From positions 64,001 to 128,000 of IMG/VR virus record IMGVR_UViG_3300001598_001658: DNA of 64,000 bases; one strand, 5' to 3'. Positions 11,907 to 60,030 of the stretch are shown here, in pieces. Below the pieces are notes generated by a model, which saw nothing but the letters and a program-made list of their open reading frames with translations, was not told the origin of the DNA and did no database searches. Origin of the DNA: a virus. Taxonomy: Duplodnaviria > Caudoviricetes. Position numbers and translations under genes: made by a program. Each line of letters starts with the position of its first letter. Positions within the stretch are counted from its first letter, which is position 1.

Positions 11907-12182
11907 TTAACATAGATGTAGAGTGATTTTATAGCCGGGTAATTCTAGACAATCGAAGTCTGTTTTATCCGGCGTTATTAGTTGAAATGATCCAATGAAA
12001 AGCTTGTCTTCGTTTGTTAAATTTGTTGTTGCGAAAATCGTTTCAACAAATTTGATCATCGATTTTTTATCCGAAACTTCGACACCAGAGAAAATCTTTG
12101 AAATTGAAGGAGAAATTTTATCTCCTATTTTCATTTTTTCTTCAATTACATATTTCACGTAATTTGAATCCCAACAAGCCAT
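11907..12182 (-). CDS. hypothetical protein (91 aa)
   Basis: Likely start ATG 12182 (MACWDS...) after AAGGAGG. Confidence 0.7.
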   Translation of the reverse strand: MACWDSNYVKYVIEEKMKIGDKISPSISKIFSGVEVSDKKSMIKFVETIFATTNLTNEDKLFIGSFQLITPDKTDFDCLELPGYKITLHLC

Positions 12183-12260
12183 TTTTGGCCTCCTTATAAT
12201 ATTAAAATTATTTTTAGTCAGTAGTGATGAACCACACATTTTACTGTACGGTTCCCAACA
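12180..12260 (-). repeat. conserved leader hairpin element, copy 2
   Basis: TGTTGGGAACCGTACAGTAAAATGTGTGGTTCATCACTA...AAAAATAATTTTAA...AAGGAGGCCAAAAATG. Confidence 0.85.
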
Positions 12261-12270
12261 GAATAGAAAA

Positions 12271-12304
12271 AATAAAGCTAGGATGTAAAATCCTAGCTTT
12301 ATTT
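12271..12304 (-). terminator. intrinsic terminator
   Basis: AATAAAGCTAGGAT / ATCCTAGCTTTATT. Confidence 0.7.
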
Positions 12305-12305
12305 A

Positions 12306-12524
12306 TTATTTGCGTTTAGAAAAATAACTTTTATTTCTACGTGGTGCACACACAAGAGTAGAGATTTCCTTTCTAACACTAGGTTCCGGTTTTTTATCTC
12401 TATCACTTATCACCTGATCCAATCGACGTTCAAATGAATCCTGAAGTACATCCATTGCATATTCATCGACAGGTTTGCGACCACCAAAAGGTTTACTGGG
12501 TCCATTTTCATAATCATCTAGCAT
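12306..12524 (-). CDS. hypothetical protein (72 aa)
   Basis: AAGGAG RBS, TATATTAT motif (12571-12564) and a downstream terminator. Confidence 0.7.
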   Translation of the reverse strand: MLDDYENGPSKPFGGRKPVDEYAMDVLQDSFERRLDQVISDRDKKPEPSVRKEISTLVCAPRRNKSYFSKRK

Positions 12525-12620
12525 ATATAATTAATCTCCTTTTATATTAATTTCTTCTATTAAATAATATATTTATAATTTCATTTTTTAATATGTAAAA
12601 ACAACTCTATATAACATATA

Positions 12621-14123
12621 ATGAAAAAAATAATGGAGTTTGATATGTCTAAAGATTTACCAGATCCATATGGAGATAATTATAATAGTGATAAATATAC
12701 TATTCCCGCATCAGATGATCAATATGAACTTTATGCAAATAAAGAGAATAGTTTTGAAGATCCATTTGGTCCTTTACAAAAAGGAGATTTGGGTGGAGGT
12801 CCAGAAACTTTAGTTGAATCTGACGATAATTATTATAAAGAAGTTTATTCTTTGTATTCAAATGTTTTGGATGCAAATGGTATGAACTTATTAGATCCAT
12901 ATATGGGCTACATGACGCATTTTAATAAAATGCAAAGATTAAACATTGATCCTCCATATGGAGGAAAGACTTATATTTTTATAACTCGTCCAGATTTAAA
13001 TTTCTGGAGAAATCCAACCGGTGTTCATAATGTCGAAACTGTTGATTTATTTTCATATTTTTCAAGAATGAATATTGGCATTTCTACAATGCCTTGGTTG
13101 ATGTTTCCTCACGATATGGAACTTGAATTTGTAAAAGGTGGCGAGAAAGAAAGAACAATTCGAAATCGAATTGGACCTATTCAGTTATTTGAATTTAAAA
13201 ATGGTATTGAATCGGATAACTCATTTAAAAACAATGCGTTTACTCCATTCATTCCTATTTTAAGTAATACTTGTACATCCTCCAGTGGCGGTCAGGATCT
13301 TTCATTAGAAACTGAAGAAACAGAAGGAGACTTACATGGAAATAAATTGCAATATGCAAAAGGAGCAGAATCTTCATTTGCACCTGGCGAAATTACTTTA
13401 GAATTTAATGATGTTTGGGGATCACCAGTAATGCATTTGATGAACTTGTGGGTTCATTATATTCATTACTTAACAAAAGGTCATGTAATTACTTGGGAAA
13501 AATATATTCAATATCGTATCTTGGATTATACTTGTAGTATTTATATTTTTGAAACAGATAGAGATAATTCTACTATTTTAAGATGGGCTAAATATACAGG
13601 TTGTTTTCCAAAATCAGTTCCTTTAGGAAATATTCAACACAATATGGAAACTGATGTAGAGCATTTAAGAAAATTATCTATACCATTTGCATATAATAGA
13701 TATGAACCTATGAAACCAGCAGCTTTGATGGATTTTAATTTCTTGATGAATAAATTTATTTTTGATTCAAAAGAAAGTAATAGAAAACGAGTTCTGGATT
13801 TAGGAGCTGCTCCTAGCAAACTTATCTTACCACACGATGGTTATGATATTTCAAATGTATTGAATTTAGATCCTAATGTAAGCAAACCATATCATTATGC
13901 ATATGCTTCGAATCAAGATAAACGTACAGATGATAAAATATTTCTTCCAAATGATACAAATTATTATGATAATAAATTCTGGGGTTCTATTCCATATATT
14001 CTTAATCATAAACTTGTATGGATTGATCCTAAAGTTATGTATGAAAATTATAATGCGATGAAGAAAAGAAGCGATTATATTGATTCTAAAGTCGAAAGTG
14101 AATTTAGAAATATTCCTACTTAA
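12621..14123 (+). CDS. baseplate / tail-tube-like structural protein
   Basis: YIFITRPDLNF, YTCSIYIF and KYTGCFPKSVP motifs typical of tube-fold proteins; upstream of the wedge gene; late motif at 12600-12611; start may be ATG 12645. Confidence 0.6.
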   Translation: MKKIMEFDMSKDLPDPYGDNYNSDKYTIPASDDQYELYANKENSFEDPFGPLQKGDLGGGPETLVESDDNYYKEVYSLYSNVLDANGMNLLDPYMGYMTHFNKMQRLNIDPPYGGKTYIFITRPDLNFWRNPTGVHNVETVDLFSYFSRMNIGISTMPWLMFPHDMELEFVKGGEKERTIRNRIGPIQLFEFKNGIESDNSFKNNAFTPFIPILSNTCTSSSGGQDLSLETEETEGDLHGNKLQYAKGAESSFAPGEITLEFNDVWGSPVMHLMNLWVHYIHYLTKGHVITWEKYIQYRILDYTCSIYIFETDRDNSTILRWAKYTGCFPKSVPLGNIQHNMETDVEHLRKLSIPFAYNRYEPMKPAALMDFNFLMNKFIFDSKESNRKRVLDLGAAPSKLILPHDGYDISNVLNLDPNVSKPYHYAYASNQDKRTDDKIFLPNDTNYYDNKFWGSIPYILNHKLVWIDPKVMYENYNAMKKRSDYIDSKVESEFRNIPT

Positions 14124-17459: not shown

Positions 17460-20117
17460 ATGGAACAGTTACTTAATGCTGATGGATCTCCATCATTCAC
17501 TACAATCAGTGATTTAAGAACAAATTTTGAAGAAAGCTTCGCTAAGAAACAACTCGGTGCAGCTATGAAAGATATTGTTGTAAAATCAATTGATAATATT
17601 GAAAATAATAATGTCGAAGGCGTATTAGCTGATGAAAAAATTAGAAATATTGTAACTAATGGAATCGGTGAAATTGCAGATAAAGCATATACAAATGATG
17701 AACTTAATGGAAGTTCATATCTTGGTGGGCTTAAAGGAATCGTTAAAGAATTTGCAGGTATGGAAGCAAATTACCGTGAAGACCTTGCAAATGCTATTCT
17801 TTCCGTTGAATCAAACAAAGCTATTGCTGGTGGAAAAATTCAGGAACTTTTCTCAGTTGAAAATCTGAAGTTTACATCTCCTGAACTCAATAAACGTTTT
17901 ATCGATGAAATCAATTTTAAATTTGGAAACGAAGCAGATGAAATTGTAACAGAAATCGGTAAAGATGTAGGTGCTGCAATTGCTGAAGCTGAAGAAAAGA
18001 ATGTAATTATCAATGAAACAAGTAAAGTTATTCAGGATCAGAAAGATGAAATTCGTGAAGAACTTTCAACAACTGAAGAAGATGAAGATGAAGAAAATAA
18101 AAACGAATCAGAAAACGATGAAGAATTTGATGATTCGGAAGATAATGGTGAAGAACCTGAAAACAATGATGAAAATGAAACTTCTGAAGAAGGATATGAA
18201 ATGGGAACTGAACGATTAATCGGGTTAAATTCGGATGAACGTGCAGATGCTCTTAAATTCTTAGATTCTCAAAAAGGAAAAATTGAAAAGTCATTTAAAG
18301 ATTTTTATGCTAAACTTTCAAAGGAATATGATAAACTTCTTAATAATAAAGATGAAAAATATCATTTTAAACCTTATTTTGAGAATGAAAAAGATTTCAG
18401 TGAAGAATTTAATGAACGATTAGATAAAATTTATAATGGTATTCATAATAAAAAAGGTTTATTTGGAAATAGTAGAAATTCATTCAAAATGAAACTTTGT
18501 AATATTCGCGGAATTAGTAATTCTAAATATATCATTTCTTGTCTTTTGGCATGTATTCCATACATCGGATGGATCGGAACATATGCAATTGTTCTTTCCG
18601 ATGAAGATGAAAAGAAAGCAAATAAAGTTGTTAAGGAAACAGTTAATGCAGCATCATCTGTTATGGAAACAAAAATTTATATTCGTCAAGGTTTAAACGA
18701 CGGTGAACATGTAACTTATGATTTATTCCTTAAAATAAAAATAAATCTCAAAAAATTCTGGCAAAAAGGTGGACTCGAAGATTATGATTCTGAAGTGCTC
18801 GATATCGAGAATAAACTCAACGATTCTCTTCAGACCGATATTGAAAACGGAAAAGTTATGATTGGAGAACCAGATATCAATCCGGACACCGGTGAGATTA
18901 TCAATGTATCAGATCATACAGAGGAAGAAATTGTTGGTCACGAAGAACCTGATGCTGTACCGGATCAGATTACATCATCGAATCTCGATGAAACTCCTGA
19001 TGCTATTGTTGACGATACTATTCAGACAGAAACTGATGTAGGAACTGAATCTAAAGAATATTTATCATATCTCTATGGTAATAATAATATTGCTAAAGTT
19101 GTTGTTCCACTTTCACCAACACGTCTTGATACTCTCGAAATTCCACAGGCAAAATCGCTCGCATCTATTTTTGCAAAAGGACATGAATCACTTGATTCGC
19201 TCGAATCTGTTGTAACTGCACGTTTTGATATTCTTGAAGATATTGTAAAACGTGAAAATGATGAAGAACTTACACAAAAGTTCAATACATATAAAGCAAC
19301 AGCAACTGAAGCTTTTGAAAATGCTGCTCGCATTCAAAGTGCCTTTGGAGCCGTTGGTCTTACAGCAAAAGGACCAATTGATGCAGATTCTGCTTCAATC
19401 TATATTGCATCAAAAACTTACAAATATTTTGATGGTAATTTAAAGGTTAAAAACATTACTCCAAAGAAATCATTTGAATCTCTTACTGATGCAATCGATG
19501 CGGCTTTTGATATTGCTGTAGTAAAAGACACTGCACGTAAAGCAAAAAATAATGATGATCTTATTGCTCTCGCAAAAGATTTATCTGGTCGTGAAGATCT
19601 TTTCTGGAACAATGTTCTTGATCTTACAGAAAGCGCTGATAAGGATAAGATTAAAAATATCCCTCAGCTTGCTGATCTTGACATTGATACAAAAGCTCTT
19701 ATTGAAGACACATATCTTGAAAATTTGAAGATTGCAATTGATACAGTAAAAGTTACACCACCTGGAAAAACTGAATCTGAAATCAATGAAGAAATCTACA
19801 GAAAATCAAAAGAAAAGATCGAGTCATTCCTCGGTAAAGACATCAATATAGAACAGGATGAAATCATTCGTGCTATTATTGATGGACGTGATACAAGTGA
19901 CTTCGCTCCTACACCATTTGAAAAATTTGTTATCAAATTCGGAACAGATAAAGTTCTTGAAAAAGATGGCGGAAAAGATTTTGAAATTGGTCAGGAATCT
20001 GCAAATGAAGTTAAAAATATGGCAATTGTATCTTGTGTTCTTAATCAGTTTGTAGATAAACTCAATCCAATGAATGAAACAGATACAAAAGAATTTAAAA
20101 AATATATTGGTGCATAA
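17460..20117 (+). CDS. acidic virion/head protein precursor with many [G/S]-x-E sites
   Basis: SVE x2, GNE, GYE, GTE x2, GLE, GHE x2, SFE and GQE motifs; in the structural operon. Confidence 0.55.
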   Translation: MEQLLNADGSPSFTTISDLRTNFEESFAKKQLGAAMKDIVVKSIDNIENNNVEGVLADEKIRNIVTNGIGEIADKAYTNDELNGSSYLGGLKGIVKEFAGMEANYREDLANAILSVESNKAIAGGKIQELFSVENLKFTSPELNKRFIDEINFKFGNEADEIVTEIGKDVGAAIAEAEEKNVIINETSKVIQDQKDEIREELSTTEEDEDEENKNESENDEEFDDSEDNGEEPENNDENETSEEGYEMGTERLIGLNSDERADALKFLDSQKGKIEKSFKDFYAKLSKEYDKLLNNKDEKYHFKPYFENEKDFSEEFNERLDKIYNGIHNKKGLFGNSRNSFKMKLCNIRGISNSKYIISCLLACIPYIGWIGTYAIVLSDEDEKKANKVVKETVNAASSVMETKIYIRQGLNDGEHVTYDLFLKIKINLKKFWQKGGLEDYDSEVLDIENKLNDSLQTDIENGKVMIGEPDINPDTGEIINVSDHTEEEIVGHEEPDAVPDQITSSNLDETPDAIVDDTIQTETDVGTESKEYLSYLYGNNNIAKVVVPLSPTRLDTLEIPQAKSLASIFAKGHESLDSLESVVTARFDILEDIVKRENDEELTQKFNTYKATATEAFENAARIQSAFGAVGLTAKGPIDADSASIYIASKTYKYFDGNLKVKNITPKKSFESLTDAIDAAFDIAVVKDTARKAKNNDDLIALAKDLSGREDLFWNNVLDLTESADKDKIKNIPQLADLDIDTKALIEDTYLENLKIAIDTVKVTPPGKTESEINEEIYRKSKEKIESFLGKDINIEQDEIIRAIIDGRDTSDFAPTPFEKFVIKFGTDKVLEKDGGKDFEIGQESANEVKNMAIVSCVLNQFVDKLNPMNETDTKEFKKYIGA

Positions 20118-57955: not shown

Positions 57956-57960
57956 AAATA

Positions 57961-57996
57961 AAAAAAAGAAACTCCGGAGATATTCTCCGGAGTTTC
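57961..57996. terminator. terminator ending the minus-strand RNA cluster
   Basis: GAAACTCCGGAGA / TCTCCGGAGTTTC with a long A-run on the left (U-tract on the minus strand). Confidence 0.8.
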
Positions 57997-58000
57997 AAAT

Positions 58001-58460
58001 TTGTCTAGTTCTCGTATAGACACTGATCAATCAGAAATGCAGGCTGTCGAGGAATCTACCTATATGGTAGCCCTTGCAGAAGTTCCGACTTACAATCCAA
58101 AACCAGACGCATTCCTCCTCTTCATTTTCTTATTCGCGATCGAGCCTCACCGCGCTCATAGGAATGCTGATTATTTATTTCTACTCCCTCAAGTATTCTA
58201 TTTTCATAGCTTACTTAATATCTCTGTAGAAACTAACTGAATTCTACTTTCAAATGGATGGACTACGTTCCACTTTACTATTTCGAAGATTCTCAACGCA
58301 TGCGAATTCTGCTACATACGTACATTATCAGCTGTCGCTGAATCTTATAAGGAATAATATAAACATTTGGGTCACTAATTTACTCGCCTCGTATAATTAA
58401 CTCAGATTCATTGCTAATCATATAAAGTTTTCTAAAAGCCTTCTTCTGTTCCCATATTTG
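58001..58460 (-). ncRNA. large structured ncRNA candidate (possibly ROOL/GOLLD-class)
   Basis: No credible ORF, raised GC, many helices (TGAATCT/AGATTCA, GTAGAA/TTCTAC, GCATTCCT/AGGAATGC, CTACC/GGTAG, TGTCTA/TAGACA); downstream of tRNAs. Confidence 0.55.
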
Positions 58461-58494
58461 TCATTAAAATTAGATAAAGATAAAAATCGATATA

Positions 58495-58845
58495 AATATC
58501 AACGTTCATCTCTAGTCCGTCTAATTAATACTTGTCCGACATCAACAGAAGTATCGATGTCCTTAATCATAAAGTGCTTACCCAATGGCATCACATTCCT
58601 TATGATAAGACTATTTGACGACAATAGCGCTGTTTCGAGCATGGTGCACTCCACCACAATCCATTCGAGTTGAAACAATTTAAAAATCATCTCTTTTAAC
58701 ACATCTCGTGATCTCGTTGTTTTCAGAGAATTGCTCGTTTCTCTATTACACCTTTTTACCACTTGATTCTTATGAACAGTCCAACGAACATAAGCAGGAC
58801 AACTATTGTGTGTAATACAAATCCCATCTAGCAGTGCCAGATGAT
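58495..58845 (-). ncRNA. structured ncRNA candidate (separate RNA or 5' domain of the preceding one)
   Basis: Helices CATCTGGC/GCTAGATG, TATTACAC/GTGTAATA, CTTATG/CATAAG, AGAGAA/TTCTCT, ATCATAAGG/CTTTATGAT, GACATCGATA/TGTTGATGTC. Confidence 0.55.
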
Positions 58846-58848
58846 TAG

Positions 58849-58919
58849 CTCGGCCAGCAGGATTTGAACCCGCGAATTCGGCACCAAAAGCCGATGGCAT
58901 ACCGCTTACCGACAGCCGA
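58849..58919 (-). tRNA. tRNA-Gln (UUG)
   Basis: Cloverleaf with anticodon arm TCGGC-TTTTGGT-GCCGA and T-arm GCGGG-TTCAAAT-CCTGC; no encoded CCA. Confidence 0.9.
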
Positions 58920-58932
58920 AAAAATAAAAAGC

Positions 58933-59015
58933 GAAGAGATAGCCGTTAAAAGAAGTCTACATCGTTTATTGCCTCCAAGAGCGTAACTACTCCTGTGTTT
59001 AATAACTATCTCTTC
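58933..59015 (-). ncRNA. stem-closed small RNA candidate (83 nt)
   Basis: Terminal stem GAAGAGATAG/CTATCTCTTC extendable with G-U pairs on the minus strand. Confidence 0.55.
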
Positions 59016-59034
59016 TAGCAGCAACGCTGCCTAT

Positions 59035-59158
59035 CGGCCACTGTACGAATTGAACGCACACTTTTATATGCAAACAGGGCTTAAAGATTACAACAGATAC
59101 AGTAGAAGTATCTCTCTTAGTTTGCACATAATGTAGCTACCATTACTACCAAAAGGCC
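59035..59158 (-). ncRNA. tRNA-like RNA with a greatly extended anticodon arm (124 nt)
   Basis: Acceptor GGCCTTT/AGTGGCC, D-arm GTAG-TAATGGTAG-CTAC and T-arm GTGCG-TTCAATT-CGTAC; a 68-nt arm replaces the 17-nt anticodon arm. Confidence 0.75.
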
Positions 59159-59170
59159 AAAAATAAAATA

Positions 59171-59243
59171 TGAATCGGATAACCGGAAAATCAAAACCAA
59201 ATTTATATAGGAGTCTAAATGACAAAGTTAGCTATCCGATTCA
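59171..59243 (-). ncRNA. stem-closed small RNA candidate (73 nt)
   Basis: Terminal stem TGAATCGGATA/TATCCGATTCA, extended by 3 pairs on the minus strand; U-rich loop. Confidence 0.55.
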
Positions 59244-59247
59244 AATA

Positions 59248-59320
59248 TGGGCCACCTAGGATTTGAACCTAGGACCAAAGGATTATGAGTCCCCTGCTCT
59301 AACCACTGAGCTAGTGGCCC
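59248..59320 (-). tRNA. tRNA-Ile2 (CAU, lysidine-type); Met not fully excluded
   Basis: GGGCCACTAGCTCAGTGGTTAGAGCAGGGGACTCATAATCC... closely resembles bacterial ileX-type tRNAs. Confidence 0.85.
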
Positions 59321-59325
59321 AAGAA

Positions 59326-59450
59326 ATGACAGCCTTGACATATTGTCTTCATCTGTCTGTAACCCCCGGAAAAGCGACACGATCGCATATACATCGAATG
59401 CATATTGGTTATTCCTAGTTCTTGTATACATCCACGTGCAATCATGTCAT
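59326..59450 (-). ncRNA. multi-branched small RNA candidate (125 nt)
   Basis: Closing stem ATGACA/TGTCAT; inner hairpins ATATGCAT/ATGTATAT and GCGA/TCGC within GGAA/TTCC. Confidence 0.45.
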
Positions 59451-59502
59451 ATACTACTATGCTCCAAATTCTTTTGAAGAGATTTATGTTGCATCGCATA
59501 GA

Positions 59503-59589
59503 TGCCGAGAACCAGACTTGAACTGGCACGCTGTTTGCACAGCAAGGGATTTTAAGTCCCTGGTGTCTACCAAATTCCACCATCTCGGC
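59503..59589 (-). tRNA. tRNA-Leu (UAA)
   Basis: Class II cloverleaf with anticodon arm AGGGA-CTTAAAA-TCCCT and long variable arm GCTGT-GCAA-ACAGC. Confidence 0.95.
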
Positions 59590-59606
59590 TCAATTTTATT
59601 TTTTAA

Positions 59607-59650
59607 ATAAAAGGACAAGGAACACAGGAGGTTATGCGTATTCCTTGCCC
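59607..59650 (-). terminator. terminator-like hairpin with a 12-nt loop after the HU-like gene
   Basis: GGGCAAGGAATAC-GCATAACCTCCT-GTGTTCCTTGTCC-TTTTATTT on the minus strand. Confidence 0.65.
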
Positions 59651-59682
59651 AAAGGAGTATTTAATGGAATGTTAGAAGATCA

Positions 59683-60030
59683 TTATTTGATTTCTTTTCT
59701 TTCACATTTAAAACCAGTATTGGCGATTGCGACGAATTCCTGACGTGGTGTCATATGAACACCAATTGATGCAGATACTTCGTATTTGCGGCCCTTTTCA
59801 TCTGTTTCTGTGTGAGCACCGAGATGCTTAAGTACAGTTGCACAGTGTGGATTTTTGATAACCAGTACATCATTTTCTTTAAGGTTTGGGGCTTCTTCTT
59901 TTGCAATGTCATCAGTGACTTTATTGAGCGCATTCAATACTTCCTGAGATGTGCTCTTAGGAATACCACAGTCTTTTTCAATTCTTTCATTAACCGAAGT
60001 CCAGTTAATTGTCTTTACATTTTCAGCCAT
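59683..60030 (-). CDS. HU/IHF-like DNA-binding protein
   Basis: ERIEKDCGIPKSTSQEVLNAL helices, beta-arm AHTETDEKGRKYEVSA and terminal HMTPRQEFVAIAN; GAGGAGG RBS. Confidence 0.65.
   Translation of the reverse strand: MAENVKTINWTSVNERIEKDCGIPKSTSQEVLNALNKVTDDIAKEEAPNLKENDVLVIKNPHCATVLKHLGAHTETDEKGRKYEVSASIGVHMTPRQEFVAIANTGFKCERKEIK

Follow-up and report, generated by a model that had tools for sequence, protein, structure and literature searches.

A tRNA-shaped RNA with an enlarged arm at the anticodon position in the tRNA operon of a presumed jumbo phage: a candidate non-decoding tRNA mimic

The tRNA operon and its cloverleaf RNA

The stretch of DNA examined in the present study (64,000 nucleotides, hereafter the window) corresponds to bases 64001-128000 of a 145-kb viral record with a GC content of 30% and an estimated completeness of ~51%. 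The record encodes an S80 prohead protease, of the Pfam kind that represents phage morphogenetic proteases, and from this gene together with the 145-kb length at ~51% completeness we therefore regard the source as a jumbo phage. Relatives of the phage derive from metagenome assemblies, and one 186-kb contig among them had been mis-binned with an Anaeroplasmataceae MAG. No sign of stop-codon recoding was found in the phage, reading frames being long and contiguous under the standard code, with little added when TAG is read as sense.

A tRNA operon occupies positions 58848-59589 on the minus strand of the window and comprises tRNA-Leu(UAA) (59589-59503), tRNA-Met/CAU (59321-59247), a tRNA-like RNA and tRNA-Gln(UUG) (58919-58848), with folded spacers between them. 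The three ordinary tRNA genes were each called by ARAGORN and Rfam. The tRNA-like RNA lies between tRNA-Met/CAU and tRNA-Gln, on the same strand as all three, and the tRNA-Gln(UUG), which is normal, follows 115 nt downstream. These genes are contained in a 1.7-kb minus-strand stretch without a credible protein gene, running from a 115-aa gene to a bidirectional terminator (57968-57996); spurious ORFs over the operon were absent from the protein collection searched. In the interval from tRNA-Leu to tRNA-Gln, no sigma-70-type promoter-like or terminator-like sites were detected. Within the non-coding stretch a single terminator-like hairpin occurs, immediately past tRNA-Gln (58844-58824). The stretch is closed by the strong terminator at 57996-57968, a GC-rich hairpin of 13 perfect base pairs that has T-runs on either strand and ends both the RNA operon on the minus strand and a 253-aa gene on the plus strand. 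Directly upstream of the operon is the 115-aa gene (59683-60030, minus strand). In a word-based protein search its product matched itself only, yet in relatives a gene of equal size occupies this position, and the protein is evidently fast-evolving.

The tRNA-like RNA is a 124-nt cloverleaf (59158-59035, minus strand) in which a 68-nt arm replaces the anticodon arm. Its acceptor stem consists of the 5' strand GGCCUUU (59152-59158), with a presumed RNase P site before G 59158, and the 3' strand AGUGGCC followed by a discriminator G at 59035 (59035-59042), with no encoded CCA; it deviates from regular pairing by a U5-U68 mismatch and a U6-G67 wobble. U8 and G9 (59151-59150) precede the D-arm (59133-59149), delimited from sequence and fold, which has a GUAG/CUAC stem and the loop UAAUGGUAG containing G18 and G19, and which is followed by A26 (59132). 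On the 3' side, also from sequence and fold, the variable region AAGU (59063-59060) leads into the T-arm GUGCG-UUCAAUU-CGUAC, the two together occupying 59043-59063. An initial annotation made from the sequence had described an acceptor stem with a U-U mismatch, U8, a D-arm with GG, a 4-nt variable region and a T-arm, all of which were recovered here at the same minus-strand positions.

The arm that replaces the anticodon arm begins with a long helix, formed by the 5' arm UUAUGUGCAAAC (59120-59131), whose first 5 nt are at the anticodon-stem position, and the 3' arm GUUUGCAUAUAA (59064-59075). This helix has 12 bp with one G-U and encloses 44 nt, as the initial annotation had proposed and as both the sequence and the minimum-energy fold bear out. 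Within it lie the 5' side of an internal loop, UAAGAG (59114-59119), an inner hairpin AGAUAC-UUCUACU-GUAUCU (59095-59113; loop 59107-59101) and, according to the fold, a 19-nt single strand GUUGUAAUCUUUAAGCCCU (59076-59094) as the 3' side of the internal loop. The minimum-energy fold of the element is exactly this cloverleaf (-37.8 kcal/mol, z = -3.1), with none of 200 shuffled sequences folding as well, and folding the element together with both spacers leaves the cloverleaf intact as a separate module. The flanking spacers are themselves independently folded modules. Pairing of the 19-nt strand with the rest of the operon was no better than that of shuffled sequences, and inspection for a K-turn or loop-strand pseudoknot shared by the element and its strain variant found none. 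A small hairpin, GCAGC-GUU-GCUGC (59016-59030, minus strand), begins 4 nt past the discriminator and could influence 3' end processing of the tRNA-like RNA.

ARAGORN did not call the element with or without intron mode, or in tmRNA mode; intron mode (-i) returned nothing beyond a low-scoring artefact in which the acceptor stem was a different one. Rfam returned no match at gathering score or at E<=10, including RF00005. Once the 68-nt arm was replaced in silico by a 7-nt loop, ARAGORN called a 75-nt tRNA, which is an objective check of canonical tRNA spacing. Like canonical tRNA (RF00005), the element has a 7-bp acceptor stem, U8, a D-arm with GG, a 4-nt variable region and a 5-bp T-stem with G53-C61 and a UUCAAUU loop, its acceptor stem, U8, D-arm and T-arm being at standard spacing save for the U5-U68 mismatch and U14 instead of the usual A14. 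Unlike canonical tRNA, it lacks a 5-bp anticodon arm with a 7-nt loop bearing U33 and a purine at position 37, which in its hairpin loop is C (UUCUACU; UUCUGCU in the variant). The tRNA-like body is 50-70% like many tRNAs and is a copy of no tRNA in the phage; its top half resembles tRNA-Ser no more than tRNAs of other isotypes, and so points to no particular isotype of origin.

A decayed tRNA pseudogene with a random or mobile palindromic insert would account for the failure of the tRNA finders, for U14 and for the acceptor-stem U-U mismatch. Such decay fits poorly with the elbow nucleotides, which are intact (G18 and G19 with U54, U55 and C56; G53-C61 present), and with the lack of a second insert copy in the 145-kb record, where the only match longer than 13 nt to the 68-nt insert is the insert itself. 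A repeated palindromic mobile element (MITE-like) was rejected because the insert is single-copy in this record.

Strain variation and relatives

A variant ~90% identical to the element was present in Logan contigs of two public sequencing runs of the same study, X1 and X2. The X1 contig (362 nt) covers 58973-59325 and the X2 contig 59109-59314, at a depth of ~4, with the 3' arm of the long helix represented in X1 only. Runs X3-X20 contain no more than small shares of the stretch. Contigs of two further runs, X3 (RNA) and X21, cover only the conserved tRNA parts of the operon, and those of X3 give no coverage of the tRNA-like RNA. The variant was rebuilt from the listed differences and aligned to the reference, and base pairs were counted. 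Within the 124-nt element it differs by 12 substitutions and one 2-nt insertion, with none of the 35 pairs lost; another change falls just past the 3' end of the element. Both strands of the acceptor stem, the discriminator and the UAAGAG side of the internal loop are the same in the variant.

The changes are most telling in the long helix. In its 5' arm, 59127-59124 reads ACAU instead of GUGC in both the X1 and X2 contigs, and in its 3' arm 59071-59069 reads AUG instead of GCA in the X1 contig, exactly complementary to the 5'-arm changes. Three adjacent pairs have thus changed on both sides (U-A to C-G, G-C to A-U and C-G to U-A), and the neighbouring G-U has become A-U. In the T-stem, changes at 59057 and 59044 convert G-U to A-U and U-A to U-G, keeping both pairs. 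Pairing is kept by all 9 stem substitutions. Elsewhere, the D-arm differs only by a loop U>C at 59142 (position 17), the inner hairpin has the loop UUCUGCU and 2 additional nt in its 5' arm that form a bulge, and 18 of the 19 nt of the single strand are identical, the change of its last U to G adding a 13th pair to the long helix.

Simulation of 12 random substitutions gave P ~4e-4 for the loss of no pair with at least 9 stem hits and P ~9e-4 for at least three two-sided pairs. All long-helix changes are transitions able to pass through G-U. The G-U pairs themselves, in the acceptor stem (6-67), at helix pair 5 and in the T-stem, exist only on the minus-strand RNA and would otherwise be A-C mismatches; therefore the constraint acts on the RNA and not on a DNA palindrome. 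The replacement arm and the T-stem thus appear to be under RNA-level selection, as judged from two sequences and one lineage comparison.

These data bear directly on two alternatives. A palindrome that acts in the DNA, for instance as a protein-binding site or a cruciform, and lies by chance inside tRNA-like sequence would explain why the 12-bp inverted repeat stays complementary in the variant. It is nevertheless highly improbable given the A-C mismatches that the helix, T-stem and acceptor stem would contain in DNA or on the other strand, the covariation of the T-stem as well, and tRNA geometry across the whole element. Decay of a tRNA gene is likewise hard to reconcile with nine stem substitutions that all keep pairing, and we consider the pseudogene very unlikely, even though the element is absent from the DNA of the closest relatives (see below). 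Covariation had been suggested as a check on the initial annotation. Compensatory changes in the related variant preserve its tRNA frame as well as its extended helix, which answers the concern that this might be a one-off decayed insertion. The broader suggestion of a tRNA mimic stands in that the changes point to a functional molecule and not a decayed gene, while the specific roles offered for it fared unevenly.

The strain differences in the long helix fall in four adjacent pairs (5-8 of 12; 59124-59127 with 59068-59071), the outer four and inner four pairs being identical between strains. The four changed pairs could reflect the exchange of a block that sets specificity, or they could have arisen together in a single recombination patch and not as independent events; a recombination patch, if that is what it is, would derive from an allele that itself keeps the helix. 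The spacer between tRNA-Met and the tRNA-like RNA (59143-59201, minus strand), which folds as an end-paired module, has 1 change in 88 nt in the X1/X2 variant compared with 12 in 124 nt for the tRNA-like RNA, and therefore seems to be under stronger sequence constraint than the tRNA-like RNA itself.

Exact-pattern scans of viral, metagenome and genome contig collections recovered no homologue, and 19 matches to an 18-mer in the contig scans were attributed to chance, being 18-23 nt long. Searches with blastn of 50,697 phage records, in which the operon and the individual tRNA halves served as separate queries, gave ordinary tRNAs or noise only. Using the protease to find relatives, we obtained none in IMG/VR and only the known 186-kb contig in GTDB genomes. 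By blastn, nhmmer and model R1, the element is absent at the matching site in the relatives defined by protease identity (L002-L015). For the closest relatives by protease, the DNA covered comprised 10-kb flanks from seven phage contigs, together with the 186-kb contig in full. The element is therefore an accessory that was either acquired recently or is seldom retained. A seeming match in the 186-kb contig proved to be a coding repeat, and the one match of R1 across 151 genomes of the order to which that contig had been mis-binned was an ordinary tRNA-Ser(GCU).

The RNA cargo between the 249-aa and 115-aa genes (57956-59682) varies widely among these relatives. The source phage carries three tRNAs, the tRNA-like RNA and folded spacers, compared with only tRNA-Leu in L002 (11661-12153) and L003, only tRNA-Arg(UCU) in L007 (2901-3410), and no tRNA or other cargo in L004, L005 and L009. 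L012, with a protease 58% identical, has a 1.7-kb gene-free gap of 29% GC at the same place (12037-13749); no tRNA and no blastn similarity to the operon were detected in this gap, which may hold a different RNA cargo. L005, a 248-kb contig with a protease 68% identical, carries a well-formed tRNA (19622-19697, plus strand) with anticodon UUA and the ochre-suppressor-type loop A-U-UUA-A-U, surrounded by genes that are normal under the standard code.

Decoding, splicing and processing

The inner hairpin had attracted attention in the initial annotation as AGATAC-TTCTACT-GTATCT, with a 7-nt loop centred on CUA. The hairpin is present, and the emphasis on its centre is weakened by the variant, which reads CUG. 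The loop differs only at position 37 from the anticodon loop of E. coli tRNA-Gln, UUCUGAU (UUCUAAU in the amber suppressor). It stands on top of 12-13 bp, an internal loop and a further 6 bp, beyond the reach of a normal anticodon arm. The structure speaks against a decoding role, since the loop is ~20 bp too distant from the elbow and carries a pyrimidine at position 37, and the CUA of one strain is CUG in the other.

Decoding after removal of the insert is a separate matter. Lak megaphages carry 'enigmatic' tRNA introns of 76-140 nt that contain no known ribozyme and are conserved between strains (Devoto et al. 2019, PMC6784885), and the present element could by analogy be an intron-bearing tRNA, perhaps a Gln or suppressor tRNA, whose 58-68-nt insert is excised by unidentified proteins, the mechanism suggested for Lak. 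As in Lak, a very large gut phage has a tRNA-shaped gene in which tens of bases are inserted where the anticodon loop would be. The placement of the insert exactly at that position, above the equivalent of a 5-bp anticodon stem and accompanied by a normal variable region, speaks for an intron, and anticodon-loop inserts of 76-140 nt have been published for large-phage tRNAs (PMC6784885). Suppressor tRNAs also occur in this phage group, as the UUA-anticodon tRNA of L005 indicates. However, the Lak inserts measure 76-140 nt, and from the exons around them an anticodon and isotype can be recognised (Tyr GTA, Thr TGT, Phe GAA, Gly TCC and Leu TAA; PMC6784885), whereas in the present element an anticodon loop cannot be reconstructed and the bases that would flank it co-vary as a helix. 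As read from the sequence, every split leaving 7 loop nucleotides produces G33 or A33, or C37 or U37. The implied anticodon moreover differs between the variants, being CAA or UAA for the 37/38 split and UUG or UUA for the 31/32 split, because those bases co-vary with their helix partners.

Further observations argue in the same direction. The long helix is continuous, without the 3-nt bulges of a bulge-helix-bulge motif, and no Rfam ribozyme or group I match was obtained. Running ARAGORN with its intron setting, a check that had been recommended for the element, yielded nothing credible. A normal tRNA-Gln(UUG) is already encoded 115 nt downstream. No RtcB, RNA_ligase, Rnl1/Rnl-type ligase or CCA enzyme was found in the 145 kb, which is weak evidence because the record is ~51% complete and one control, Rnl1, matched nowhere. 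Taken with the lack of a consistent anticodon and of any restorable normal loop, these points leave the removable insert of the initial annotation unlikely.

The element might instead serve purely as a processing signal, a tRNA-shaped handle on which RNase P and RNase Z act to free the flanking spacers, with an arm that has no function of its own. Such handles are known elsewhere, for example in mascRNA and in mitochondrial tRNA punctuation, and this precedent, together with the independently folded spacer modules on both sides, fits the idea. The operon is, however, already punctuated by ordinary tRNAs, and a mere handle needs neither a compensatorily kept 68-nt arm nor a conserved 19-nt strand. 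We regard this explanation as improbable.

In its general plan the element also recalls two classes of RNA in which a tRNA-like domain is joined to a long helix. In tmRNA, a long helix leaves the tRNA-like top half where an anticodon arm would be, and the bacterial YrlA Y RNAs carry a tRNA-like domain; YrlA, with Ro60/Rsr, joins this tRNA mimic to a long protein-binding stem, in which the two ends of the RNA lie. The shared plan would make a miniature tmRNA-like or Y-RNA-like molecule conceivable, yet the particulars differ to an extent that leaves either with a very slight probability. With respect to tmRNA, the G3-U70 pair is lacking (the pair is C3-G70), there are no pseudoknots, the RNA is only 124 nt long, and ARAGORN in tmRNA mode (-m) finds nothing. 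The only small frame, of 11 codons between two UAA, is not a conserved tag frame, since it is shifted by the 2-nt indel of the variant. As regards Y RNAs, the combination of tRNA mimic and long stem is alike, but the present RNA has its ends in the acceptor stem and not in the long stem, and it has no Rfam match. Neither a TROVE nor a DUF2828 gene was found in the 145-kb record (~51% complete; the DUF2828 control matched nowhere), and the Y-RNA-like option raised at first is not borne out.

A candidate tRNA mimic and its relation to known RNAs

With moderate confidence, and on sequence evidence, we interpret the element as a processed, non-decoding tRNA mimic, that is, a stable tRNA-shaped phage RNA. 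It would be transcribed as part of the minus-strand tRNA operon, cut by RNase P before G 59158 and by RNase Z after G 59035, and given its CCA by a host enzyme, as would the neighbouring tRNAs that lack an encoded CCA. Such processing and CCA addition would be expected because the acceptor stem, the T-arm and the D/T-loop elbow are intact. U14 in place of A14 and the U-U mismatch in the acceptor stem count against the mimic. In the mature RNA, the tRNA-like top half would dock onto tRNA-recognising proteins, while the special arm would bind one particular partner or block it. Candidates would be a defence nuclease of the host that cleaves tRNAs, or an enzyme that modifies or charges them. Our leading guess, a purely conjectural one, is a role as decoy or adaptor rather than as a translation substrate.

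A further and more speculative proposal, which we consider rather unlikely as it stands, is that the element is the first of a class of tRNA mimics not previously described in phages. Its top half would recruit a tRNA-recognising host factor and its fast-evolving but always-paired arm would trap or redirect that factor, constituting an RNA-based counter-defence or hijacking device. Possible partners would include an anticodon nuclease, GlnRS or an amidotransferase, or a modification enzyme. This proposal is touched by two features, namely the 4-bp block swapped between near-identical strains and the hairpin loop, which departs from the E. coli tRNA-Gln anticodon loop at position 37 alone.

Among known phage RNAs, the closest points of comparison are RNAC (species 1 RNA) and RNAD of T4, which are likewise encoded in line with phage tRNA genes. 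T4 RNAC is made late in infection (PMC9697503), and its function is still unknown (PMC3014915). The present element resembles RNAC in having a tRNA-type T-arm (CCGGG-UUCGAAU-CCCGG in RNAC) and paired ends, to which RNAC adds large extra hairpins. The two differ in that RNAC is without a normal D-arm and has two large hairpins, whereas in the present element enlargement is confined to the anticodon arm, and the D-arm, variable region and spacing follow the canonical pattern. A search of the T4 locus with model R1 gave no match, and there is no sequence or model similarity. Neither T4 RNAC/RNAD nor the Lak inserts are homologous to this element or of the same architecture.

The tRNA clusters of phages are commonly interpreted as aids to codon usage or as spares against tRNA-cutting defences. 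T4 RNAC and RNAD have been unexplained stable RNAs for some fifty years, and the tRNA inserts of megaphages are still called enigmatic. The element described here offers a clean case, in which the tRNA frame is fully kept, the structure speaks against decoding and the added arm appears to be under selection at the RNA level. It would give tRNA finders a model for a gene class that is currently missed, and its partner, if found, could reveal what purposes other than translation tRNA mimicry serves in phages.
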